Of a DNA stretch of 64,000 bases, positions 1-50,182 are shown piece by piece. The translations under genes were made by a program, and so were the position numbers. Below the pieces are notes generated by a model. That model was given only the letters and a program-made list of their open reading frames with translations. It had not been told where the DNA came from and did no database searches. The DNA lies in assembly GCA_041640595.1 (NCBI GenBank), contig JBEPZY010000006.1:32001-96000 (forward strand). The letters are read 5' to 3'. Source of the DNA: Gemmatales bacterium. Lineage in GTDB: Bacteria > Planctomycetota > Planctomycetia > Gemmatales > HRBIN36. How positions within the stretch are numbered: position 1 is the first letter of the stretch; every line of letters starts with the position of its first letter.

Positions 1-557
1 CGACCGCGACGAACGACGTGGGCCTGGTGGTCCTCCACCTCCGCTTGCAACTCCTCAGCCATGTAGCCGGTGGAGAAAATGTGAATCAGCGTGGCCACCA
101 ACGTGATCATGACGAACATGGCGACGGTTAAACCATCCACATAAAAGCCCAGTCGAAATGCCGACGCCTGGCCCACTTCGCCGCTACTGGTTTGCGCCCA
201 GACTACGCCTCCCTGCCAGGGCGGTATCGCGGGATCACGCTTCCTGGCTGGAATATGGTCGTGGCTGCGGTCATGGCGATCAGACATGCCTCCCTGAGCC
301 GGCTTGTGTTCGTGCCCATGGCCGTGTTTATCGTGGTGGCTGGCAGAACCGTGCTCGTGGTCATGAGTGAGCAAACCACTGTAAGGCAAATAATAGGCAA
401 AGGCTATCACGCTGAGAACAAAAGCACCTCCGATGGCCGCAGTGGCCACCCAGCCTGCCATTCGACCCCAGTATCGGCCCCCAATGAGCAGGAGCAAAAA
501 CGAAACCAGTGGCAGGAGTGTGGCAGTGACCAGCAGCCAACCGGGATTTTCCATCAT
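1..557 (-). CDS. nuoL: NADH-quinone oxidoreductase subunit L (5' part; runs off the window edge)
   Basis: Manual translation from ATG at 557: MMENPGWLLVTATLLPLVSFLLLL...LGFYVDGLTVAMFVMITLVATLIHIFSTGYM; directly follows nuoK. Absent from the ORF track because it is truncated. Confidence 0.93.
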   Translation of the reverse strand, partial: MMENPGWLLVTATLLPLVSFLLLLIGGRYWGRMAGWVATAAIGGAFVLSVIAFAYYLPYSGLLTHDHEHGSASHHDKHGHGHEHKPAQGGMSDRHDRSHDHIPARKRDPAIPPWQGGVVWAQTSSGEVGQASAFRLGFYVDGLTVAMFVMITLVATLIHIFSTGYMAEELQAEVEDHQAHVVRRG

Positions 558-563
558 AGCCTT

Positions 564-878
564 TTATCCCTTCAGTTCCTCAGCGGTATCCACGTCCACG
601 GTGAGATAGTTGTTGTAAAAGTTCAAGACAATGGCCAGAGCGATGGCCGCTTCGGCAGCTGCGAGCACAATGGTAAAGAGTGCAAAAATCTGGCCTTCCA
701 CCCGGAAAGCCTCGTGGAACCGGGCGAAAGCAGCAAAGTTCACCGTGGCTCCGTTAAGCACCAGTTCGACACCCATCAGCACGCCGATGGCATTGCGTTT
801 GATGGCCATACACACTACACCGCAGACGAATAACACTGCACCAATCAGCAGATAGTGCGTTAGTCCAATGCCAGTCAT
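564..878 (-). CDS. nuoK: NADH-quinone oxidoreductase subunit K
   Basis: 104 aa, three TM helices, RNAIGVLMGVELVLN and LAAAEAAIALAIV motifs. Confidence 0.97.
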   Translation of the reverse strand: MTGIGLTHYLLIGAVLFVCGVVCMAIKRNAIGVLMGVELVLNGATVNFAAFARFHEAFRVEGQIFALFTIVLAAAEAAIALAIVLNFYNNYLTVDVDTAEELKG

Positions 879-985
879 GTGGATATCCTTGCTGAGTTAG
901 GCAATGATTGCTCACCTCGCTGAGCCGCGCTTCGGGCCGATAGGTGTAACAATCCACGCACCGAGGCGGGCGTAATCAAAGCCTT

Positions 986-1642
986 TCATCTTTCGGCTGA
1001 CGCCATGGAAGCCGCGCGTTTTCGCCGTGGCCGAGCCAGATAGGCCGCACCGATCAGCACCACCAGTAAATGCACCGAGACAATTTCAAACGGTAGCAAA
1101 TAAGCCGATGCGCTGCGTTGGACTGATGCTTTTTTGCCTTTTTCAGGACCTGGAGCTTCAGCAGTCGGTTTGGCACTTACGTTGGGCAAAGCAGATCGCG
1201 GCTGCACGGAAACATCGCCGAGCAGCGCCCTCCCCAATTGCTCCGTGTGGTACATCTGCTTCGGGTCGTCGGGCATAGCCGCTTCCGGAAGCTTCGACCA
1301 GTCAGCGAAAAACCAGCTGGCGGCTATCAATCCATATAGCAATAAGCCGACGATAATCGCCATAGCCCATTCGCCTGCTCCCGCCCGCAACTGAATGAAG
1401 GGCCCGGTCGCGGTCAGCATCACGCCGAAAATCACCAGTACCAGCGTCCCGCCAACGTACACAAACAGCTGTGTAGCCCCCAGAAAATCGAGTCCGAGCA
1501 AGAAAAACAATCCAGCCGTTCCCGCGAGCGTAAAGAGCAACCAGATCGCGCAGCGCACGATGTGTTGCGTAATCACCACCATCACCGCACATACAGCGGT
1601 GCCGAGAGCGACAATCCAGAAGAGTATTTCGCTGGCGTTCAT
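986..1642 (-). CDS. nuoJ: NADH-quinone oxidoreductase subunit J
   Basis: QLFVYVGGTLVLVIFGVML and YLLPFEIVSVHLLVVLIGA motifs; start set at MNASEIL (the ORF track extends to 1696). Confidence 0.95.
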   Translation of the reverse strand: MNASEILFWIVALGTAVCAVMVVITQHIVRCAIWLLFTLAGTAGLFFLLGLDFLGATQLFVYVGGTLVLVIFGVMLTATGPFIQLRAGAGEWAMAIIVGLLLYGLIAASWFFADWSKLPEAAMPDDPKQMYHTEQLGRALLGDVSVQPRSALPNVSAKPTAEAPGPEKGKKASVQRSASAYLLPFEIVSVHLLVVLIGAAYLARPRRKRAASMASAER

Positions 1643-1704
1643 GCTTTTATGTCCCGAGCCGAAGCCGATAATCGTCTGATTTGTCCAGCCAGGCATCCAT
1701 AGTG

Positions 1705-2802
1705 TTACCGAGGAGCTGCTGGAAATGCTGGAGGATTGCGGAATGGTAATTTCACCCAGCTAGGAAAGACACTGTGCCATACCAACGGCAGCAGACTGGC
1801 GCCCAGCAACAAAAAGCAGGCGATGGGGAGCAGATATTTCAAACAGGTGGTCATCACCTGGTCAATCCGCAGCCGCGGCAAGGTCCAGCGAACCCACATC
1901 ATCACGAAAACCAGTATCCAGCATTTGGCGATAAAAACCAGCACGCTAAGCACTACGTAAAGCAACCAGGCGTTTTCAAACACCCAATCGCTCAAGCTCG
2001 CGGGTACTACCCCGGTGTGCCAGCCGCCTAAAAACAACGTCGTGGCAATACCGCTTACCGCAAACATTGAGCCATACTCCGCCATGAAGAAAAACGACCA
2101 GCGCAGTCCGCTATATTCAGTATGGAATCCCGCCACCAATTCGCTCTCGGCTTCGGCTAAATCGAAAGGAGCACGCTTGCAGCTAGCTGTGGCACAGGTG
2201 AAATACGTCCAGAACGCCAGAAAAGTGAACGGGTCGTGGAAGACATACCAGTTCCAGAACAGCCCGGCCTGCTGCTGGGAGATAACGTTGAGGTTGAGCG
2301 TGCCGGCCACCAGGACCGGTATAAGCACGCAGATGGCCATCGGCACCTCGTAACTGACCACTTGGGCAGCTTCGCGCATCCCGCCGAACAAAGCCCATTT
2401 ACTCCCCGAGCTGTACCCAGCCAGGATCACGCCGAACACTTCCGTCGCCATCACCGCAAGCATGAAAAAAAGGGCAATGTTCATTTGCAACGCCACCACG
2501 TCCCGACTGAACGGCAACGCCAGGTACGCCAGAAACGAACCGGTAAACGCCAGATACGGCCCCAGTCGGAATAGAAATTGATCAGCGTTGGCCGGTATAA
2601 GGTCTTCCTTCGCCAGCAATTTGATGCCGTCGGCGATGGTTTGCAGCCAGCCGAATTTACCGCCGGCTCGTGTGGGGCCAAGGCGGTCTTGAATTCGACC
2701 CGCGACCTTGCGCTCCAGCCAGATGAAGAATATCGCCGACAGTGCGACGAAAGTGACCAGCACAATCGCCGCTAAGGTCAATATCAGTAGTGTCCAGCCC
2801 AC
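1705..2802 (-). CDS. nuoH: NADH-quinone oxidoreductase subunit H
   Basis: ERKVAGRIQDRLGP, ADGIKLLAKED, RAPFDLAEAESELVAGFHTEYSG, RWTLPRLRIDQ. Confidence 0.98.
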   Translation of the reverse strand: MGWTLLILTLAAIVLVTFVALSAIFFIWLERKVAGRIQDRLGPTRAGGKFGWLQTIADGIKLLAKEDLIPANADQFLFRLGPYLAFTGSFLAYLALPFSRDVVALQMNIALFFMLAVMATEVFGVILAGYSSGSKWALFGGMREAAQVVSYEVPMAICVLIPVLVAGTLNLNVISQQQAGLFWNWYVFHDPFTFLAFWTYFTCATASCKRAPFDLAEAESELVAGFHTEYSGLRWSFFFMAEYGSMFAVSGIATTLFLGGWHTGVVPASLSDWVFENAWLLYVVLSVLVFIAKCWILVFVMMWVRWTLPRLRIDQVMTTCLKYLLPIACFLLLGASLLPLVWHSVFPSWVKLPFRNPPAFPAAPR

Positions 2803-3120
2803 AGCTGAGGTCCCAGATCGCTTTGCCGCAGGGGCAAGCCCTGCCCAGGAAAATGCGTCTTCTGCCGGATATGGGTTTAATCCGGAAAATTAGAGCGTGC
2901 GCCAACGAGTTGCCAGGATTGGCCGTTACTTTATAGGACAACCTTCCCTGTGGCCAGAAGCCTGGAGAAAAATTTGGCCAGGAGCTGAAGCTTGGCCGAC
3001 CTGGATTAGCCTGACACCAATGCGGATACATTGCAGCCGCGCTGGTCCTTGTTTGTGCAAGCAGGAGCGTCAATCCGACGGACGCCACTTACTCGTGCGA
3101 TACCACCGCCCTGGGAGAAG

Positions 3121-4263
3121 ATGATGCACGCCTATGGTGCTGGATTTGGTACGGTGAAATGCCTGAGTCTGTGCACTGCCCTGATGCTGGCCGGTTGCCA
3201 GGGAAGCCCGGGTACCAGCATGGAAAAGCCGACTCCCTCGGCAGGACAAACCGAAACAAAATCTGGCACTCATTCATTCGAGGACAGGACGGCAAGGGCG
3301 AATTCGGACGGAGCCAGCGAGGTAAATTCTGGGCAGGCAAAGTCCGCCAGCTCTGCCAAAGATAAAAAGGCTGCCGAAAAGCCCAAGAAAAAGCCCAAGC
3401 CGGGCGCTTCGTCGGCCGTGAACTGGCTAACCGATTATCCAGCGGCCCGGCAGCTGGCCAGGCAGACAGGCAAGCCGATTTTCGTGGTTTTCCGGTGAGA
3501 GCGGTGAGCGGATTGCACCGCATTTGACGAACAGGTGGTTCGTCCTGCTGACCCCGAACTGATTCACCTGATGCAGCAATTCATCTGCGTTCGCATCCTG
3601 CAGATGAACGGAGTGGATATCGGCCTGTTCCAGTTCGATTTCGACCTGACCTGGGCAGCGTTTTTCCTGAACGCCGATGAGCACATCTACAGCCGCTACG
3701 GTGGCCGCGATGCCGAGGATGCCGAAGGGCGGATGTCCGTGGCGGGGCTGAAATATACCATGCGGCTGGTGCTCGAAGCACATCAGCAAGGGGAAACTGC
3801 ACCAGCCGGACAAAAACGCGAGGTGTTACCTGTCGAAAAAGCGTTTCCTGTCAAAGGCAAAGGGTGCCTGCACTGCCACCAGGTTTACGAAGGCTTACGC
3901 AAAGAAGCGCGGCGTCAGGGAACCTTTCGTTCGGAAATGCTCTGGGTCTATCCCTTGCCGGAAAACATCGGCCTGACACTTGACATAGATGCTGGCAACC
4001 GCATTCAGCGTATCCTTCCCGGTAGCGCTGCCGATCGTGCCGGGCTGCAAGCCGGTGATGTGCTCATCAGGATCGGTACTATTCCGATTCGTTCGCAAGC
4101 CGACTGCATGTACGCTTTACATGTTGCTCCACAGCAAGGCGAACTGCCGTTGCTATATAAGCGCGGCACGCAAACCTGTAAAACAACTCTGCTACTGTCT
4201 TACGGCTGGAAAAAATCCGATTTCTCCTGGCGCCCCTCCATGCGTAAGGAGAAACCGCAATAG
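3121..4263 (+). CDS. Putative selenoprotein: lipoprotein with a thioredoxin-like (Trx7-type) domain carrying UxxUxxC, a CxxCH motif and a PDZ domain; two in-frame UGA at 3496-3498 and 3505-3507
   Basis: ORFs 3031..3498 and 3535..4263 are in the same frame. The junction reads KPIFVVFR-TGA-E-R-TGA-A-D-C-TAFDEQVV. Lipobox LAGC, GCLHCHQ, and PDZ-like ILPGSAADRAGLQAGDVLIRIG. GGAGA lies upstream of ATG 3121. Confidence 0.85.
3526..3544 (+). promoter_or_regulatory. Candidate bacterial SECIS hairpin
   Basis: Perfect 7-bp stem GACGAAC/GTTCGTC with a G-containing loop AGGTG, about 25 and 34 nt downstream of the two UGA codons. Confidence 0.65.
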
Positions 4264-4279
4264 CTTCGCCCGCAAGCTG

Positions 4280-4342
4280 CCCGAACAAGCTCGCCAGCGG
4301 TCCGAACCAGCTCGCCAGCTGTCGGAACGAGGTCGCCAAATT
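4280..4342. repeat. Degenerate 21-bp tandem repeat, 3 copies
   Basis: cccgaacaagctcgccagcgg / tccgaaccagctcgccagctg / tcggaacgaggtcgccaaatt. Confidence 0.65.
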
Positions 4343-4390
4343 ACTGGCGCAAGCGTTTTTCTAGAAAGGAAGTGCCTCGCTTGCAGGGAG

Positions 4391-4498
4391 GTGGCAACTT
4401 CCTCCATGTCCAGACGTCGGTAAGTCTGGCACTTCCCACCACTTTCCACAAACCCAGGTCGAGGCAACAATCCTCTCTATGTCGAGACTTCGGTAAGT
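4391..4498. repeat. Imperfect direct repeat pair, about 73-bp period
   Basis: atgtccagacgtcggtaagt (4406-4425) and atgtcgagacttcggtaagt (4479-4498), 18/20 identical, each preceded by ggcaac..tcctc. Confidence 0.55.
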
Positions 4499-4673
4499 GC
4501 CAGCGCTGTTCTATCTGTCAGGGATTACCAGTTGACGCTAAATATACTACCCGTGTCCAGGCGTAATCGAGATAGAACATACCGCCAAAACTCGGGCGGC
4601 CCTCCGTGTTCACGGCAGCTTCCGTTGCACCACAGCAATGGCTGGAATCTTGCCGATTGCCTGACTCGGATGC

Positions 4674-6512
4674 TCACACCGGTTCGGCAGCACTCGACGG
4701 ACATGTTTCCCGCGCAGGCAGGTAAATGCGAAATGTGCTTCCGCGACCTGGCTGGCTTTCCACTTCGATACGGCCACCAAGCATATTCACATAGCCCTGA
4801 ACAATGGCCAGTCCCAGACCAGCGTGTCCGTCACTTTCCCCACGAGACGTGTCGGCTCGATAGAAGCGCTGGAAAATACGTGCCCGCACTTCCTCGGTCA
4901 TGCCGACACCGGTGTCCTGGACTTCGATGTAAAGCGAACCATTGTTTTGTTCAGCGGAAACCTGGACGGAACCGCCAGGCCGATTGTATTGCACAGCGTT
5001 ATCGAGCAGGTTGATGAGGATGTCGCGGAGCTTAGCCGCATCCGTGTAGCACAGCACCGATGGCACCGATGCACTGAGGGCAACCTGCTGTTGTTTTGCC
5101 AGCGGTTCGACCGTGCGAATGCAGTCCTCCACCAGCGCGGCCAGATCAAACCAGTGCCGACGTACCTGGTCCACTCCCGCGTCCAGTCGCGCCAAAGCAA
5201 GCACACGTTCGGCGAGGTGGCGAAGCTGCCGGCCAATCCGCTGACAGTTCTCCAGAGTGGCACGGTATTCCTCAGCGCTGCGAGGTCGCCGTAAAGACAC
5301 TTCCAGGGTAGTCAGCAAAGCCGCGATAGGCGTGCGAAGATCGTGCGAGATGTCGGCGATGGCCTGCTTTTCTCGCTCGAATGCCTGTTGTAAGGAGCGA
5401 AGAGTTTGCTGCAATTTTTCCACAATCGGCACCAGTTCTCGCGGCACGGGCTGGCCATCCAATGGCAGCGAAAAAGTCTTTTCATTCACCTGACTGACTG
5501 CATCAGCGATTCGGGCCAGCGGTTTTAAGTTGTTCCGAATCAACGCCCAACCTCCGATCCCGGCCCCAGCAAAGGTGGCAAGATTGGTCAACAACAAAAG
5601 CAGCCCGAAAGATCGCAACGCCGAACGGGTGTCGGCTTCGCTTTGCCGCCAGCCTTCATCGCGGCGCTGGGCGAGTCGTTCCAGTTTTTCGGCCAGCGGA
5701 GCCGTACTTCTGGCGACGGAGATAAACAGTTGCGGAGCTGATTGGTCCACAAAGGGAGGCAAGTTTCCGACTGGCGGCTTGCCTGGCGTCGGCGGGCGAA
5801 GAGTGCGTCCGGGAAACTCTGAAGGTCGCCCGCGTCCGGAAGGTCCGCTTCGTTCTGCTGGCCAGCCTCTCCACAGGAAAAACCGCCAGCGGCTTACCGG
5901 CACACGCACCGTGACTCGCCGCATGGGTTCACCTTTGGGGCTTTGAATTTCGTCATAGTACGGCTCCAATAATCGCAACTGCTCCCGCCATGTCGTCGGC
6001 AGTCGCCACGGCTCGGATAGGTTGGGTGAATAGTGCAGCACCTCCCCGTTGGGAAACGTGAACTGATAATAGAGCTCCTCTTCGCCTTCGACAAAAAATT
6101 CCTCAGAAATTTCCAGATTGGGAGCCACCAGCCAGTGCAAACGCAGGGCCAGTGGCGTATAAGCATCCTGTCCGAGCCAAATCGGCACGGTCGCAAAGGC
6201 GTTGGCGTCGAGCACAGCCGTCAAACACCCCAGGGCGAAAAACCGCAACCGCGGCCAACGCCATTGCAATCGGGCAATCCCCGCCAGAGCGTGTGCCTGG
6301 TGAAGCAAACTTTCATCGAAACGCTCTCTTTCCTCCCGTTCCGCGCTTTCATATCGAGCCTGCAACATTTCCCGAATGCCGTTCTGGCGCACTTCCAGCG
6401 AATAACGAGCCAGCGCGTACGCTGACCACGACACCCATCCCAGGACCAGCCCAAGAACCACCAGCAAGCTTAACAGCAAGCGTAATCGTATCGAACGCAT
6501 CGCATCCCTCAT
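4674..6512 (-). CDS. Membrane sensor histidine kinase (HAMP, HisKA, HATPase)
   Basis: N-terminal and pre-HAMP TM segments, ISHDLRTPIA H-box, NLLDNAVQY, DTGVG, GLGLAIV. Confidence 0.96.
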   Translation of the reverse strand: MRDAMRSIRLRLLLSLLVVLGLVLGWVSWSAYALARYSLEVRQNGIREMLQARYESAEREERERFDESLLHQAHALAGIARLQWRWPRLRFFALGCLTAVLDANAFATVPIWLGQDAYTPLALRLHWLVAPNLEISEEFFVEGEEELYYQFTFPNGEVLHYSPNLSEPWRLPTTWREQLRLLEPYYDEIQSPKGEPMRRVTVRVPVSRWRFFLWRGWPAERSGPSGRGRPSEFPGRTLRPPTPGKPPVGNLPPFVDQSAPQLFISVARSTAPLAEKLERLAQRRDEGWRQSEADTRSALRSFGLLLLLTNLATFAGAGIGGWALIRNNLKPLARIADAVSQVNEKTFSLPLDGQPVPRELVPIVEKLQQTLRSLQQAFEREKQAIADISHDLRTPIAALLTTLEVSLRRPRSAEEYRATLENCQRIGRQLRHLAERVLALARLDAGVDQVRRHWFDLAALVEDCIRTVEPLAKQQQVALSASVPSVLCYTDAAKLRDILINLLDNAVQYNRPGGSVQVSAEQNNGSLYIEVQDTGVGMTEEVRARIFQRFYRADTSRGESDGHAGLGLAIVQGYVNMLGGRIEVESQPGRGSTFRIYLPARETCPSSAAEPV

Positions 6513-43184: not shown

Positions 43185-43461
43185 CAGGCTCACTCGTACA
43201 GTCGCGGAATAGGTCGTTCCACCACGCGACCAATCCCATTTTACACGCCATCCGACCAACCGGGCAGATTCTTCTGCACAACCCTGTTCCTTTCGACCTG
43301 CATTTTCCCACCACCGTGAGTTGACGAATTGACCCTGCAAATCGTTACAATCCGAATCGGCTTGCACGGACGCTGCGTCAATCTCTTGCCCGCACCACTA
43401 TGAAAGCTCGCAGCTTTGCCCTCGTGAAATGCGGTTCCTGCCAGCGTATAATTGGAGCGAA

Positions 43462-45651
43462 ATGAAGGATTTGACAGAAACGATTCTGCAATACGTCCGA
43501 CGTCCCAATTATCAGCCCGTAAAGGTCAAGGCGTTGGCCCGGCGTTTGGGAATCGCTGCCGAAGATTATGCCGAGTTTCGTCGCACGGTGAAAAACCTGA
43601 TTCGGCAGGGACAACTCAGCTGGGGCCGCAATCACGTTGTGCGCCCGGCCGACCAGCAGGCCAGCGAGGGTAGCACCGTTGTGGGTATCTTTCACAAGAC
43701 CGCGGGCGGCTTTGGTTTCGTTCGCCCCCACGGCGTGGAAAAATATAGCCCCCGCGAAATCTTCGTCCCCGCTCATGCAGTCGGAGACGCCGCCACCGGC
43801 GATGAAGTGCTGGTGCGACTGACACGGCGACCCACAGGCAGTGACCGTGGGCCAGTTGGTCGCATCGTCCGTGTCGTGGAGCGTGCCTCCCACCATTTCG
43901 TTGGCACCTACGTGGAACGCGGTGGGGAAGGTTTTGTCATCGTGGACGGCACACAATTCAACGAACCGATCTGGGTCGGTGACGCCGGCGCCAAAGACGT
44001 TCGCCCGCAGGACAAAGTGGTCGTGGAAATTGTGCGTTTTCCCTCCCCTGGTTTACCTGGCGAGGGTGTCATTACAGAGGTTCTGGGACCGCGCGGCGCC
44101 CCAGGTGTGGACACCCTTTCGGTTATCCGTGCCTTCAATTTGCCGGTGGCTTTTTCCGCAGAAGCGCTCGCAGAAGCTCGCCAGCAAGCCGAACGATTCC
44201 GCGAAGACGATCTCCAGGGACGCGAGGATTTTACTTCCTGGCTCACTATTACTATTGACCCGGAAGATGCCCGCGATTTCGATGACGCCGTTTCGCTCAG
44301 TTATGATTCCCATCGCCGCCACTGGCATCTGGGCGTGCATATTGCCGACGTGTCGCATTTCGTTCCGCCGGGCAGTGCCCTGGATCGTGAGGCACGCGAG
44401 CGAGGCAACAGCGTTTACCTGCCGCAACGGGTTCTGCCCATGCTGCCCGAGGTGCTGTCAAATCACCTGGCCAGTTTGCAACAGGGCCGCGTGCGCTATG
44501 TCAAGAGCGTGCTGATGGAGTTCACCCAGCACGGCCAGCGGGTGCACACACGCTTTACCGAAGCAGCCATTCGTGTGGCTCGGCGATTTACTTACACCCA
44601 GGTCCAGCAAATTCTCGATGCTGCCGGTGACCAGCACCAGCTCGCCAAGCTCCAGCAAAGCCTGCAACTATCGCCGCAATTGTTGGACCTCTTGTTCCGT
44701 ATGCGCGACTTCGCCATGATTCTGCGCGAGCGGCGCAAAAAACGAGGCGCTCTGGAGCTTTACATACCGGAAGTCGAACTGGAATACGATGCCGAGGGCC
44801 GGGTTTGCGGTGCGCATTACGTTCCCCATGACATCAGCCATCAGATTATCGAGGAATTCATGCTGGCAGCGAATGAAGCGGTTGCCGAACATCTGCAATC
44901 GCTCGGTGTGCCCTTTTTACGCCGCATCCACGCTCCTCCAACACCGCACAAACTCCGGGAGTTCGCGGAATTCGCACGGGAGCTCGGATATGACATTGAC
45001 CCCCGCTATGCTACCGATCGCTTCCAGTTGCAGCGCGTGCTTGAACAATCGCGGCATCGCCCGGAGGTTCACGCTGTTCATTACGCCTTACTACGCAGCC
45101 TCAAACAGGCCGAATACAGCCCCGTGGAAGAAGGCCATTACGCCCTGGCCAGCGAGCATTACTGCCACTTCACTTCTCCCATTCGCCGGTATCCCGATTT
45201 GACAGTGCATCGCTTGCTCAGCCGCTGGCTGCACACCGGCAAAGTCAGCGCTGACGAACAGGAACTGCTGGCTCTGGGAGCGCATTGCAGTTTCACGGAG
45301 CGCCGCGCTGATGAAGCCGAACGTCAGCTCATCCGCATGAAACTCCTCGCTTACTTGAGCGAACGAGTCGGCATGGAGCTGGAGGCGGTTATTACTGGAG
45401 TTGAGCCATTTGGGTTCTTTGCTCAGTCCCCTTTGCTCCCGGTGGATGGTCTGGTTCATGTGAGCAGCCTGACCGACGATTACTACTACCACGACGAAAC
45501 TACGCACAGCCTGATCGGTCGCCGGACGAAACGGCGCTTCCGTCTCGGTGATCGCGTCCGGGTCAAAGTCGTCCACGTGGACCAATACCGCCACGAACTG
45601 GATTTCCGCGTCGCCGACCTGGATAAACGCCACGAACCACGAGGCCGTTAG
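43462..45651 (+). CDS. rnr: Ribonuclease R
   Basis: TIDPEDARDFDDA, HFTSPIRRYPDL, C-terminal S1 domain; GGAG RBS. Confidence 0.97.
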   Translation: MKDLTETILQYVRRPNYQPVKVKALARRLGIAAEDYAEFRRTVKNLIRQGQLSWGRNHVVRPADQQASEGSTVVGIFHKTAGGFGFVRPHGVEKYSPREIFVPAHAVGDAATGDEVLVRLTRRPTGSDRGPVGRIVRVVERASHHFVGTYVERGGEGFVIVDGTQFNEPIWVGDAGAKDVRPQDKVVVEIVRFPSPGLPGEGVITEVLGPRGAPGVDTLSVIRAFNLPVAFSAEALAEARQQAERFREDDLQGREDFTSWLTITIDPEDARDFDDAVSLSYDSHRRHWHLGVHIADVSHFVPPGSALDREARERGNSVYLPQRVLPMLPEVLSNHLASLQQGRVRYVKSVLMEFTQHGQRVHTRFTEAAIRVARRFTYTQVQQILDAAGDQHQLAKLQQSLQLSPQLLDLLFRMRDFAMILRERRKKRGALELYIPEVELEYDAEGRVCGAHYVPHDISHQIIEEFMLAANEAVAEHLQSLGVPFLRRIHAPPTPHKLREFAEFARELGYDIDPRYATDRFQLQRVLEQSRHRPEVHAVHYALLRSLKQAEYSPVEEGHYALASEHYCHFTSPIRRYPDLTVHRLLSRWLHTGKVSADEQELLALGAHCSFTERRADEAERQLIRMKLLAYLSERVGMELEAVITGVEPFGFFAQSPLLPVDGLVHVSSLTDDYYYHDETTHSLIGRRTKRRFRLGDRVRVKVVHVDQYRHELDFRVADLDKRHEPRGR

Positions 45652-46292: not shown

Positions 46293-46793
46293 ATGCTGGA
46301 GTGGCTTGGGCAAATCGCCTGGAGTGCTGTCACTGGCGGGGTAGGTGTGGTCGCAGGATGGCTACTCAACGAATGGCGGAACAAATACCGTCTGCATGTC
46401 ATGCGCAAACGCCTGGATGAATTGAGCCGTGAACGCGGATGCGCAGAAGCGGTTCTCATTGTTTCCAACCGCGAGGATATCCGCCCCAGTGTGGAACGTT
46501 ACTTGCGGGAACAGCAAAAACCGCACTTACCCACGTTCCACGTTCATCGCCCGGAGCTATTCAGCGATGACGAGACCGAATGGCACGGATTTATCGAATC
46601 CGTACGCAGGGAAGCGCAAAATCTACGCCAGCATGGGCCGACACGAATTTTGTTGTTCACCAACGTCCCTGTCGCCATGGGCATCTGTTTGGGAGCCTTA
46701 CTGGATAACGGCCCGGAGGTCGTGGTGCATCACTACTTCAACGGCATGTATCGCCCCGTAAGCCGGTTAGCCTCGGAGGTCGCTAAACTTTGA
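46293..46793 (+). CDS. Single-TM, SAVED-like domain protein
   Basis: GGGAG RBS; N-terminal TM (IAWSAVTGGVGVVAGWLL); C-terminal RILLFTNVPVAMGICLGALLDNGPEVVVHHYFNGMYRPV resembles the SAVED C-terminal signature. Confidence 0.75.
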   Translation: MLEWLGQIAWSAVTGGVGVVAGWLLNEWRNKYRLHVMRKRLDELSRERGCAEAVLIVSNREDIRPSVERYLREQQKPHLPTFHVHRPELFSDDETEWHGFIESVRREAQNLRQHGPTRILLFTNVPVAMGICLGALLDNGPEVVVHHYFNGMYRPVSRLASEVAKL

Positions 46794-46813
46794 CCGACTC
46801 AAGAGGGCAAACC

Positions 46814-48178
46814 ATGAACAAGGACCTACCACCCGATCAACTAATTGGCGAATGGCTGAGCGATTTTGTGCCCGAAGCTGAGCGCCTGCAACCTGAAGCG
46901 AGCGCTGACAAAGAGGCCAGTCCTGATTCCGCGACTTCGGACTCAGAAAGCAGGAATCTGTCGCCCGCTTCTGATACCGCGAATACGAACCGCGTCGTTC
47001 CTGCTCGCAATCGCACTGATTCCGAAACGGAACCCCACTCCTTTTCGGAAGCCCAGCTGAGCCACGTGGATGTGGGGCGTATGGTTTTCAGTTTCTACTG
47101 CATTGCTCCGGATAGCGAATCTGCTAAAGCTCGAGTCGAGGCGGTTTATCAGCGGCTGCTCCAACTGGTCGAACAGTCCTCGGATTTCCCGCAACCGGAA
47201 CGAGGTAACTTTGGCACTCCTACTGTGCGCTGGCTGGATTGGTCTCTGCAAGCGCCTCAGACCAACTTGAGCTGGTGCGGAGTTTGTGAGCTGATTCTGG
47301 AAGCCGAGCATCTCCAGCAGGGTCAGGGGTGTCTCTGGCGGCTGGAGCAGTATAAACGGTTCGCCCGCTGGCTTGACCGGCTGTTGGGGCAGGCAATTAC
47401 CGAAACAGCCGCCGAGTTTCCTTCGGTGCGACTTGACGATAAACCGTTCCTGTGGACGCTGGCTCTCGATCTCACGCCGCGCGTGGTTTGGACTGACCAG
47501 GCACTGCAGCAATATCGCCGTTCGCTCACCGACTTGCTCCGGGTTCGCTCCGAAGATTCCCATATTTACACCGACCGTGCCATGCAAGAATTACTGCGCA
47601 GCAACCTGGCCTATACGACCGAAGAGTTGCAGCTATTGCATTACAATACCGGCCTCATCTACGTGGCTCATGAGCGATTCTGTAGCCGCGACGGTTTCGG
47701 TTACGTGCAACAGGCCCTGGTGGATAGCAACGCCCTGATTCGCGCCGTTCGGGCATGCTTACTGCTATTCCGGAAGGAATTGAACGACCGGCTCCACAAA
47801 TGGCTGCAGGAACGATTACGCGGACGGCGACTGCGACGTGTCCTGCGGGAAACATTCAGCTATGCCAGCCTCGCTTCCCAGCTACTTCGGCAATTAGATG
47901 AGCAAGCCTTCTGTGCGACCCGCCAGGTCGGCCACCAGCAGACAGTCTTTCGTGCCTTGCTGCACCGTTATCACGTCCCGGAACTGGTCGCCGGTTTACA
48001 GCAACAGGTAACCGAGCTGCATCATCGTATTGCCGACTTGCAGAATCAGTTTCAGGCGAGCCAGCTGCGTTTGATTAATGTGCTGGTGGTAATTCCGGCT
48101 CTGTATTACCTCTGGCGTTTCGTGCATGAATTCTGGCCCGTTTTGCAGCCCCTTTTTGACGCATGGCTGGGCCTCTGA
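46814..48178 (+). CDS. Divergent CorA-like (alpha/beta domain + coiled coil + C-terminal TM) membrane protein
   Basis: GAGGG RBS (an alternative TTG start at 46790 overlaps the upstream stop); NLAYTTEELQLLHYNTGLIY, long helical stalk, TM LINVLVVIPALYYLW. Confidence 0.55.
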   Translation: MNKDLPPDQLIGEWLSDFVPEAERLQPEASADKEASPDSATSDSESRNLSPASDTANTNRVVPARNRTDSETEPHSFSEAQLSHVDVGRMVFSFYCIAPDSESAKARVEAVYQRLLQLVEQSSDFPQPERGNFGTPTVRWLDWSLQAPQTNLSWCGVCELILEAEHLQQGQGCLWRLEQYKRFARWLDRLLGQAITETAAEFPSVRLDDKPFLWTLALDLTPRVVWTDQALQQYRRSLTDLLRVRSEDSHIYTDRAMQELLRSNLAYTTEELQLLHYNTGLIYVAHERFCSRDGFGYVQQALVDSNALIRAVRACLLLFRKELNDRLHKWLQERLRGRRLRRVLRETFSYASLASQLLRQLDEQAFCATRQVGHQQTVFRALLHRYHVPELVAGLQQQVTELHHRIADLQNQFQASQLRLINVLVVIPALYYLWRFVHEFWPVLQPLFDAWLGL

Positions 48179-48250: not shown

Positions 48251-49327
48251 TCAATGCCGGAACAAAAATAGCGCCACCAGGTCAATGATAAACAGCAGTA
48301 CGATGGCCGCTTCCATCCAGAGCATGCGCCGCTCATAAATCTCGCTCTGGAAAATCTGGTACAGGTGGTCGAGCTGGCTCAGACGTTGCTGCACACTTTG
48401 CCGCCAGTCGTCCAGATGGAAGCGTTCTTTAGCGCCAAGATAAACCCGGGCCAGATACCAGTCGCCGAGGAATTTGGTAATGTGCGTTACCTCATCGGCA
48501 ATGCGGGTCACATCCACGCGGAAACGTCGCAGCTTCGATAAAGTTCGCCGTAACCCGAACAGGAACGCCCAGCGCATTCGCTCCAGGTCTTCGTAGGCAC
48601 GGTCGAGATACTTATCGAGCCGGTGATCCATCATGCGAAACTCTTCCAGCTGCAAATTGGCCAGCTCCAGCACGTAGAGCACATCTTCCATGTACCCTTT
48701 GGTGTCCACCACCAATGCAGCATCCCAGTCAATGACGACCAGATCGGTTCTTTCGTAGGCCCGGCGAATGCGCAAAGTCTCCTGAATCTGGTCTTCGCTC
48801 AGGGTTTCGGGCGAAGTTTGCGTGAGCAAGCCGGCAATTTCGCGGCGATTCTTCACGAACCACTCCGAAGCGTCGCCCTCCGCACCCAGGTCGGTAATGC
48901 AGAAAACGGTATAGGCTTCCGGTTCGATGATCCGGGAGCTGCGTATCAGCACAGGTCGCAAACCCTCGTACACCTCATCGCAAATCCGCCGGGCAAAACG
49001 ATCCAGCGTATCGCCGGAATCCAGTCGTGGGTCATGCAGAGCCATCAACGAACGCAGACTGTCCCCTTCCCAGGGGACGCGAAAGGTAACCGAAATCACC
49101 CCCACACCGTAAACCCGCACCAGCACTCCAACCGGACGCTCGCCAATCGTGGCGGTGACCAGAGGTTCCACTGCCAGCGGCTGATACAGCGGCAATTCGC
49201 GCGGAATCTGGCTGGACAAGCGGACAACGAAAGGCACCGCCTTTTTGGAAAGTATCTCGGTGACCAGTCCGAGGGCGATTTCGTCGGCCACGTCGAATGC
49301 GTACAGGTAAACCACCTCGCCTTTCAT
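48251..49327 (-). CDS. Conserved hypothetical membrane protein, CorA/RMD1(DUF155)-like architecture
   Basis: YLYAFDVADEI, DLVVIDWDAALVV, LELANLQLEE, KFLGDWYLARVY, C-terminal TM MEAAIVLLFIIDLV. Confidence 0.7.
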   Translation of the reverse strand: MKGEVVYLYAFDVADEIALGLVTEILSKKAVPFVVRLSSQIPRELPLYQPLAVEPLVTATIGERPVGVLVRVYGVGVISVTFRVPWEGDSLRSLMALHDPRLDSGDTLDRFARRICDEVYEGLRPVLIRSSRIIEPEAYTVFCITDLGAEGDASEWFVKNRREIAGLLTQTSPETLSEDQIQETLRIRRAYERTDLVVIDWDAALVVDTKGYMEDVLYVLELANLQLEEFRMMDHRLDKYLDRAYEDLERMRWAFLFGLRRTLSKLRRFRVDVTRIADEVTHITKFLGDWYLARVYLGAKERFHLDDWRQSVQQRLSQLDHLYQIFQSEIYERRMLWMEAAIVLLFIIDLVALFLFRH

Positions 49328-49525: not shown

Positions 49526-50182
49526 GTGACCGCAGGCGAACGGGATCGCGAGTTAGTTGCACGCTGCCTGCGACGGGAACCGGCGGCATGGCGCGAGTTT
49601 GTTGACCGGTATCTGCCGCTGTTGTACTACGTCATCCAGCACACTTCCACGCAGTTGAGTGTGCCTGTATCGCCCGAAGAAACCGAGGATTTAGCTGCGG
49701 ATGTGCTGACGCAGCTTATTCAGGATAATTTTCGCGCTTTACGGCAGTTTGAGGGGAAGTCGCGCTTGAGCACCTATCTGGTGGTGATCGCCCGCCGACT
49801 GGTCCTGCGTCAGTTGCGAAAAAAGCTGACCGGTCCGGTGGTTAAACCTTTGCCAGATGGCCAGGCCCTTGGCGATGAAGGCCAGGATTGGCGACGCCAG
49901 AGCACTCGCCCGGAGATTATCGAGGAAATACACGAACTGCTTCGCCGCTTGCCTCGCCGCCTTCGCCAGATTGTGCGCATGTACTACCTCGAAGGTCGCA
50001 GCTACGAAGAGATCAGCACCGCCCTGAACATTCCCGTCAACAGCATCGGTCCCGTACTTACGCGGGCCCGACGGTTGTTGCTGACTCGGCTGCGTGAACG
50101 GGAGCAAGCGGGCGGCTCTGCTTCCGAAAATTCCGCAACCCAGCACACTTCAGCCGATAAACAACCGCCGGAGCCGAGTTGA
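49526..50182 (+). CDS. ECF-type sigma-70 factor
   Basis: AWREFVDRY, EDLAADV, LSTYLVVIARR, YLEGRSYEEIS...SIGPVLTRAR. Confidence 0.93.
   Translation: MTAGERDRELVARCLRREPAAWREFVDRYLPLLYYVIQHTSTQLSVPVSPEETEDLAADVLTQLIQDNFRALRQFEGKSRLSTYLVVIARRLVLRQLRKKLTGPVVKPLPDGQALGDEGQDWRRQSTRPEIIEEIHELLRRLPRRLRQIVRMYYLEGRSYEEISTALNIPVNSIGPVLTRARRLLLTRLREREQAGGSASENSATQHTSADKQPPEPS

Follow-up and report, generated by a model that had tools for sequence, protein, structure and literature searches.

A single-lobe SAVED protein with a predicted membrane anchor, encoded apart from the three type III CRISPR loci of a Gemmatales genome

The membrane proteins Cam1, Csx23 and CorA are described as effectors of type III CRISPR systems (PMC11229360). 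In the cyclic oligonucleotide-based antiphage signalling system (CBASS), transmembrane (TM) SAVED proteins are reported to form ligand-induced filaments that open the membrane (PMC13434031), and ligand-bridged, head-to-tail stacking has been reported for SAVED and Csx15 proteins (10.64898/2026.10.26.761840; 10.1101/2024.05.08.593097). The current study concerns two adjacent genes in a 64,000-nucleotide stretch of DNA, designated the window, from a Gemmatales bacterium (GenBank assembly GCA_041640595.1, contig JBEPZY010000006.1, positions 32,001 to 96,000 of the forward strand). The first, at 46293..46793 of the window on the + strand, stop codon included, encodes a 166-residue protein referred to here as the sensor, and the second, at 46814..48178 on the same strand, stop codon included, encodes a 454-residue protein referred to as the partner. 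The original prediction, made from the letters of the window, was that the two constitute a candidate new system in which a compact TM-SAVED sensor is coupled to a CorA-like membrane protein. The sensor was found to be a SAVED domain of single-lobe size. We give about even chances to the reading that, anchored in the membrane, it binds cyclic oligoadenylate as a receptor, most likely cyclic tetra-adenylate (cA4), and acts as a membrane effector that serves the type III CRISPR systems of its own genome in trans.

The sensor matched the Pfam SAVED family PF18145 with an E-value of 1.4e-10 and a score of 41.7 bits (cut-off 26.2) and the NCBIfam SAVED family NF033611 with 34.4 bits (cut-off 33). 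The latter match was limited to positions 138-258 of the 261 in the model, the second half of the domain, in agreement with the description of the protein in the original prediction as roughly half a SAVED. The SAVED-like signature quoted there was likewise real. In an alignment of 25 sequences it falls in the block with the strongest conservation, and the invariant residues of the alignment include His146/His147, Asp138 and Tyr153. There were 27 homologs at E <= 1e-3, 26 of which carried PF18145, and a search of viral contigs returned no relative. When the profile of 25 homologs was compared with the PDB, it matched the C-terminal lobe of three solved SAVED proteins, namely the CalpL SAVED-Lon protease (chain 9eyi at E 5.6e-7), a viral SAVED ring nuclease and a 3TM-SAVED protein. 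The best PADLOC model was SAVED4--SAVED_TM (PDLC02011) at E 4.5e-23, which was also the best model for all six of the further homologs scanned, while the runner-up for the sensor was a 172-position model named "CARF, 2 TMs" at E 6.5e-9. By its profile matches the sensor is a minimal member of the already catalogued class SAVED4--SAVED_TM. With an existing class as the best match and homologs that occur elsewhere without the partner, the label "candidate new system" was not sustained.

The AlphaFold2 (AF2) model of the sensor, with a predicted local distance difference test (pLDDT) score of 84.9, showed one helix over residues 2-47 followed by five strands and three helices. The hydrophobic part of the helix, residues ~5-25 (46305..46367, + strand), is the predicted membrane anchor and is followed by a basic stretch, while the five strands and three helices form a single SAVED lobe at residues ~48-163 (46434..46781, + strand) with an invariant block at ~118-153. 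In a Foldseek comparison of the model with the PDB, 20 matches reached E <= 1e-3, and Cap4, CalpL, SAVED-CHAT, 3TM-SAVED and Cap14 headed the list. In a second, Foldseek-independent search against 48,161 PDB representatives, the top 11 rows were all SAVED proteins, with Z-scores of 9.7-12.6 and 105-114 residues aligned, one lobe of each. Among the top structural matches was the viral SAVED ring nuclease 9r8s (Z 11.8), the CalpL chains had Z-scores of 10.2 and 9.9, and the CARF domains ranked below the SAVED rows with Z 8.4 or less. Both searches identified a SAVED fold in the small protein, as predicted. A complete SAVED has two lobes, fused in a single chain around one pseudo-symmetric ligand site, whereas the soluble part of the sensor is ~115 residues long and aligned with one lobe of each solved SAVED.

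The single membrane helix that had been proposed for the small protein was hydrophobic across the family and less so in the copy under study. The Kyte-Doolittle maximum over 19 residues was 1.36 in the window copy, whereas the family median was 1.71 and 16 of 25 homologs reached at least 1.6, so that an N-terminal TM helix is plausible and, in the window copy, borderline.

The prediction also held that no cyclase was nearby and that the signal was made in trans. For the window itself the first of these stood, since no CD-NTase, Cas10 or TIR gene was found there in a Pfam scan that took in 48 of the 60 open reading frames (ORFs) of at least 80 residues; the genome, on the other hand, holds three Cas10 loci, which makes a signal produced in trans plausible. 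The assembly comprises 4.45 Mb in 42 contigs, is 95% complete and contains exactly one SAVED match. A type III-A locus on a short contig encodes Cas10 (621 bits), Csm2 and Csm3. The type III-B locus, which lies beside a type I-B locus, encodes Cmr1, 2, 3, 4 and 6 with a Cas10 match of 286 bits, and the type III-D locus encodes Cas10 (PADLOC E 1.2e-77), Csx10, Csm2 and a Csm3-like gene. The GGDD motif was present in all three Cas10 sequences. The CRISPR arrays were very large: contig C1 (359748-377934) carries at least 247 repeats, and contig C8 (2-21080) carries 37, 89 and 190 (at least 316). Those on C8 are next to the type I-B/III-B locus, and the same repeat was also seen at the end of contig C10.

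Unlinked type III systems were found, as the prediction had envisaged, but a CBASS cyclase was not: there was no SMODS (CD-NTase) match at E <= 0.1 in the 95% complete genome. This bears on a reading in which the signal comes from some other cyclase. In a Panoptes-like arrangement, a constantly present nucleotide would restrain the sensor, which would fire when a phage sponge or nuclease removed the nucleotide; in a variant of this idea, the sensor would answer a CBASS-type signal. Panoptes is described as an mCpol cyclase with a ligand-restrained membrane effector, and CARF or SAVED effectors are also reported with mCpol (PMC12657218). SAVED domains also commonly serve CBASS, judging from the titles of the PDB entries among the matches. 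However, the genome had no separate mCpol gene, the sole match to the mCpol model lying within the Cmr2 gene and scoring 16.3 bits, below the threshold. With neither kind of cyclase found in an assembly that, at 95% completeness, may lack some genes, this reading is considered very improbable.

Accessory genes in this genome were generally scattered. Two other CARF genes, with matches to PF09651 (Cas_APE2256) in a 395-residue frame at C7:75474-75875 and to PF09670 (Cas_Cas02710) in a 421-residue frame at C20:2020-2424, lie on contigs without a Cas10 match. Between the I-B and III-B genes, a 131-residue ORF (C8:30351-30746, equivalent to L019:6354-6746, - strand) matched only the first ~59 positions of Csx1/Csm6, and looks like a truncated or broken CARF-HEPN effector gene. 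Two weak, sub-threshold matches, one to a Card1-type nuclease in a 500-residue frame (C1:13010-13300) and one to a Cas10 palm in a 630-residue frame (C1:21600-22112), lie 8 kb apart and may mark a further signalling module or else plain GGDEF-like genes. The openings of ORFs (~60-80 residues) at ~38.6-39.7 kb of C8, by the III-B Cas10, and at ~418.4-419.2 kb of C3, by the III-D Cas10, were almost identical, which suggests a repeated element at both loci.

The sensor family is sparsely distributed and tracks Cas10. Across the phylum it was found in one of 401 sampled genomes, the one being the genome under study, and among 61 close relatives in 10 genomes from 6 of the 31 genera. At E <= 1e-5, the Cas10 models matched 18 (Csm1) and 19 (Cmr2) of the 61 relatives, a union of 20 genomes. 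Cas10 was present in 9 of the 10 carriers of the sensor, as opposed to 11 of the 51 non-carriers; the Fisher p-value, with no correction for kinship, was 7.8e-5. When matches above the curated cut-offs alone were counted, the numbers were 8 of 10 and 10 of 51, respectively. Genus g294 is represented by 13 genomes, of which three were positive for Cas10, and the sole SAVED-positive genome of the genus was among the three.

The genes next to the homologs point to cyclic-oligoadenylate signalling. In one genome (G405, loci L027/L036), a gene for Csx3, which is a ring nuclease family, begins 13 bases downstream of the homolog (PF09620, 73.6 bits, cut-off 21). In another (G416, loci L029/L035), the homolog and a Cas6 gene overlap; the latter matched at PADLOC E 2.1e-20, with a Pfam match below the cut-off, and is followed by a Csx1-like CARF nuclease (PADLOC E 5.1e-11). 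At locus L006, a CARF + HD_4 fusion lies directly upstream of the homolog, its stop codon overlapping the start of the homolog. The neighbours at the remaining homolog loci (L002, L004/L024, L026, L028 and L030) were unrelated. The L006 stretch (3-5228), from Armatimonadota according to its record, encodes the CARF-HD_4 fusion, the TM-SAVED homolog, a 439-residue membrane protein and a Tubulin_2 protein in a row on one strand.

The mechanism that we propose combines 1) the affinity of the sensor to SAVED4, 2) the Csx3 neighbour, 3) the need of a single lobe to pair into a two-fold symmetric site and 4) what has been published on the behaviour of SAVED and Csx15. A Cas10 complex, any of the three, would meet phage RNA and make a cA4 signal. 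The single SAVED lobe, which would have no full site alone, would pair with a second copy and clamp the ring between the two lobes. Ligand-bridged stacking, as in other SAVED and Csx15 proteins, would gather the membrane helices, upon which the membrane would be damaged or depolarised and the infected cell would stop growing. In the genus of the window, the downstream 454-residue membrane protein would probably be the part that is switched, while in other lineages the sensor would act by itself or next to different accessory genes of type III systems.

The strongest rival starts from the same pairing of lobes and arrives at the opposite outcome. The sensor could be a membrane-tethered, Csx15-like ring nuclease, in which pairs of lobes stack on cyclic oligoadenylate and cut it, ending the type III alarm. 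Csx15 is described (10.64898/2026.10.26.761840) as a single-unit relative of the SAVED subdomain. It is reported to form dimers and, with ligand, filaments, to degrade cA3-cA6 and to be able to act in trans; its genomes mostly have Cas10, and small groups bear N-terminal transmembrane helices. The sensor matches Csx15 in size and architecture, and its invariant His146/His147, Asp138 and Tyr153 are candidate catalytic residues. CalpL, which belongs to the SAVED4 group by its PADLOC name, is also reported to have ring nuclease activity (10.1101/2024.05.08.593097), and a ring nuclease, 9r8s at Z 11.8, stands among the top structural matches. However, with Csx3 directly after the L027 homolog, a sensor next to its off-switch seems more probable than a tandem of ring nucleases, which is a mild argument, and no Csx15-named family was among the 11 PADLOC families that matched at E <= 1, a collection that may have no such model. 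A ring nuclease is regarded as unlikely.

For the partner, no family was found in Pfam, PADLOC or NCBIfam. One search returned 7 homologs, and a search of 1.84 billion representatives returned 25 at E <= 1e-3, a number that dropped to 7 at E <= 1e-30. Conservation of the gene pair, which the original prediction had named as its own check, was complete in one genus and ended there: among the 61 related genomes, the partner was confined to the genus of the window, where it occurred in all four genomes, always directly downstream of the SAVED gene. Three of these four loci coincide with L001, L003 and L005 and were counted once. Four further sensor-partner pairs were inferred from metagenomes, solely because the longest contigs of a sensor and a partner homolog were equal in length. 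The spacing of the two genes was equally tight, or overlapping, in L001, L003 and L005. Across the pairs, the identity of the sensor fell to ~50% and that of the partner to 46-52%, and the pair is therefore old within its lineage. An RNase R gene and an MJ0711-like gene surround it in the window, and a set of MFS, FHA and sigma-54 activator genes in L001 and L005; its presence in two different surroundings fits a unit that moves together.

The layout that had been foreseen for the second protein, an alpha/beta domain, a helical stalk and a hydrophobic C-terminal end, was seen in its AF2 model, which had a mean pLDDT of 67. Residues 1-80 (46814..47053, + strand) were of low complexity and poorly conserved, missing or different in the homologs, and predicted to be disordered, with pLDDT below 50, as opposed to 80-95 over residues 81-220. 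The alpha/beta domain spans residues 84-291 (47063..47686, + strand), and includes the most conserved block of the family, marked by invariant columns, at ~264-283. Helices were predicted at 296-335, 340-369, 373-385 and 388-452, and the long stalk, residues 296-416 (47699..48061, + strand), resembled many helical bundles. The short hydrophobic segment at residues ~417-438 (48062..48127, + strand), a possible tail anchor or single TM helix, was kept in 9 of 9 homologs. The hydropathy maximum of the window copy was 1.54 at residue 420, in the only scanning window that reached 1.5 or more.

The likeness of the partner to CorA was not substantiated. No CorA family was matched in Pfam (E <= 1), PADLOC (E <= 1) or NCBIfam (E <= 10). 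The GMN motif (G-[M/V/I]-N) was absent in 9 of 9 homologs, and Foldseek returned nothing for the model at E <= 1e-3 against the PDB. In the comparison with PDB representatives, the matches were mostly helical bundles aligned on residues 300-425. The few rows that spanned both the alpha/beta domain and the stalk included three CorA-family chains, 8zah (Z 9.4, root-mean-square deviation (rmsd) 6.2 Å, 181 residues aligned), 7nh9 (Z 8.6, rmsd 7.0 Å, 198 aligned) and 4ev6 (Z 8.3, rmsd 6.8 Å, 203 aligned), values that are common for helical models. As judged from these searches, the partner belongs to an unnamed family and is not a CorA family member, its likeness to CorA being a loose one in overall architecture. 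A similarity of the partner to MJ0711_N was faint, with an Atlas feature score of 0.93 to an MJ0711_N cluster, E 0.029 by BLASTP against the neighbouring 358-residue protein and 7-10% probability in the profile-profile comparison, and neither the partner superfamily profile nor the MJ0711-like family profile gave anything below E 0.4 against the PDB.

The conserved central block recurs in remote relatives of the partner (E 6e-15 to 5e-4), 10 of 17 of which have a C-terminal NUDIX domain. The SAVED profile, at E <= 1, had no match among 588 ORFs (>= 60 residues) of 80 NUDIX-type metagenome loci. The NUDIX-fused relatives (L037-L116) are membrane proteins of 550-615 residues on contigs of ~32% GC, with neighbours that by eye look archaeal and housekeeping, and the family appears to be undescribed.

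A more specific form of the proposal can be stated for the genus of the window, a split, two-protein type III membrane effector. A half-SAVED cA4 sensor with one helix would, by ligand-driven pairing and stacking, switch a separate membrane protein of an undescribed family with a sensor-like alpha/beta domain, and its gene would lie far from the cas genes so that three Cas10 systems could share one output. The evidence for the two-part effector of the original prediction is adjacency within one genus; a prediction of the complex between the sensor and partner residues 81-454 scored 0.00, which is uninformative either way. We consider the split effector unlikely.

Several observations weigh against the sensor as a type III receptor and effector, 1) the hydrophobicity of both the N-terminal helix of the sensor (1.36) and the C-terminal segment of the partner (1.54) is only moderate, 2) the partner is absent beside 8 of the 12 distinct homolog loci that were read directly, and the pair is therefore not a general two-gene system, 3) the genome has two or more other CARF genes, and the sensor is therefore not needed to explain the target of a Cas10 signal, 4) the sensor is unlinked to cas genes in all nine genomes that have both, lying on a different contig from Cas10 in eight and 2.6 Mb away in the single-contig genome, 5) one carrier, G405, has no Cas10 match, 6) the co-occurrence counts are drawn from related genomes and overstate independence and 7) the window is a core chromosomal region, with rpoB/rpoC, EF-Tu, tRNA and RNase R genes and no defence island.

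The last of these points, together with the lack of linkage, also counts for a housekeeping role. The sensor would then be a second-messenger receptor outside phage defence, one that responds to a common nucleotide of the cell by regulating the membrane protein encoded next to it. The core chromosomal place without mobile or defence genes in the window agrees with such a role, as does the separation of the sensor from cas genes in every genome examined, and the 10 of 17 remote partner relatives fused to NUDIX, with 80 loci that lack a SAVED neighbour and surroundings that are housekeeping by eye, can be read in the same way. A housekeeping receptor does not sit well, however, with the patchy spread of the family (10 of 61 relatives, 1 of 401 genomes phylum-wide), with Cas10 in 9 of 10 carriers or with Csx3, Cas6, Csx1-like and CARF-HD neighbours of homologs, and we consider it improbable.

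The window includes genes for NADH dehydrogenase subunits, RpoB/RpoC, ribosomal proteins, NusG, SecE and EF-Tu and many of the planctomycete-typical DUF1501 and DUF1559 (Pfam), and the only Rfam matches were five tRNAs. The sensor gene begins with ATG at 46293 and ends with TGA at 46791-46793, as given in the ORF list and checked at the codons, and a 166-residue homolog covers 100% of the sensor. The partner gene begins with ATG at 46814, 20 nucleotides past the stop codon of the sensor, and ends with TGA at 48176-48178; both genes are where the original prediction had placed them, the second within 20 nucleotides of the 166-residue first. The ATG starts of both genes were preferred over upstream TTG codons because the homologs are 166 and 454-455 residues long, and a 462-residue partner frame from TTG 46790 was dropped on account of the latter length. 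The 20-nucleotide intergenic spacer (46794..46813, + strand) contains a purine-rich stretch, resembling a ribosome-binding site, ahead of the ATG. Promoter and terminator scans around the pair gave nothing above the shuffled expectation.

Upstream of the pair is the RNase R gene (43429-45651), and downstream are a convergent gene for a 358-residue protein (48251-49327, - strand) and then the gene for an extracytoplasmic function (ECF) sigma factor (49526-50182, + strand), 1.3 kb from the pair. The 358-residue protein has a strongly hydrophobic C-terminal helix and belongs to the MJ0711_N family (PF27233). It has 2919 homologs at E <= 1e-3, and all 120 among the matches listed carry PF27233; identity among the listed homologs is 56-87%, and their record names cover several phyla. 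Its gene was dropped as a possible part of the unit, the family being very large and conserved and not found near the pair in L001 to L006. The ECF sigma factor was considered as a CalpS-like output and dropped as well, being unrelated to the ECF sigma factor near the L035 homolog (BLASTP E 0.088). No sigma gene was found near the pair in L001 or L005, and the ECF sigma genes near the pair and near the L035 homolog are there probably by chance.

Effectors of type III systems are usually sought beside cas10. The sensor family was never beside cas10 in the genomes examined, yet it tracks Cas10, and it shows how much of the output of signalling may escape surveys that look around cas10. A membrane receptor for cyclic oligonucleotides could hardly be smaller than one helix and one SAVED lobe, and the sensor is a convenient object on which to learn how half-sites pair and stack on a ligand and whether the response is carried out or ended. 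If the partner is the switched component, this would be the first function for an unnamed family of membrane proteins.

Among known systems, the catalogued class SAVED4--SAVED_TM has the same order of a hydrophobic N-terminus followed by a SAVED4-type lobe. The sensor differs in covering positions 145-271 of the 278 in the model, and the matches of its homologs start at ~115-140; the catalogued form has ~115-140 further positions at the N-terminus, presumably additional membrane helices. Judging from its name, which reportedly goes back to a 2020 classification of CARF and SAVED proteins, the class comprises SAVED proteins bound to the membrane and predicted to be accessories of type III CRISPR, and no experimental study of the class was found in a literature search.

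Csx15, as described, likewise consists of one SAVED-like unit, ~115-130 residues long, which needs to pair before it can bind a ring; it is reported in fusions with TM helices and can act in trans on Cas10 signals, a comparison that for the sensor is drawn on architecture alone. In contrast to Csx15, the sensor matches curated SAVED models, and no Csx15-named entry was among its PADLOC matches or in the structure lists. CalpL, the cA4-activated SAVED-Lon protease of type III CRISPR, is related to the extent that the PADLOC models SAVED4--SAVED_LON and CRISPR-Lon also match the sensor. However, the SAVED of CalpL has two lobes and is joined by a Lon protease and the soluble partners CalpT and CalpS, whereas the sensor has one lobe, no protease and a putative membrane anchor.

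Cam1 and Csx23 resemble the sensor by layout, in that one or more N-terminal membrane helices are joined to a small cytoplasmic domain, one that in Cam1 and Csx23 binds cA4 and oligomerises as proposed for the sensor, and the proposed outcome is depolarisation. Their sensor domains are a CARF domain (Cam1) or a distinct fold (Csx23), and both are encoded inside type III loci, unlike the sensor. The CorA effector of type III-B systems, activated by S-adenosyl methionine-AMP (SAM-AMP), and the CorA magnesium channels compare with the partner only, through the loose fold likeness to 8zah, 7nh9 and 4ev6. CorA proteins have an alpha/beta/alpha domain, a long stalk helix and a hairpin of two C-terminal TM helices, the first of which ends in the GMN motif, whereas the partner has one weak hydrophobic segment, no GMN and no CorA sequence match.

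The TM-SAVED proteins of CBASS (Cap14/3TM-SAVED; 9wq2, 9wq3 and 9om7) are membrane-anchored SAVED proteins and are among the matches of the sensor. They differ from it in having a complete, two-lobe SAVED, three TM helices, 2'3'-cyclic GMP-AMP (2'3'-cGAMP) as the ligand and an adjacent CD-NTase, an enzyme that was not found in the genome under study. The most notable features of the sensor are its single lobe, its consistent lack of linkage to cas genes and its lineage-specific, unnamed membrane partner.

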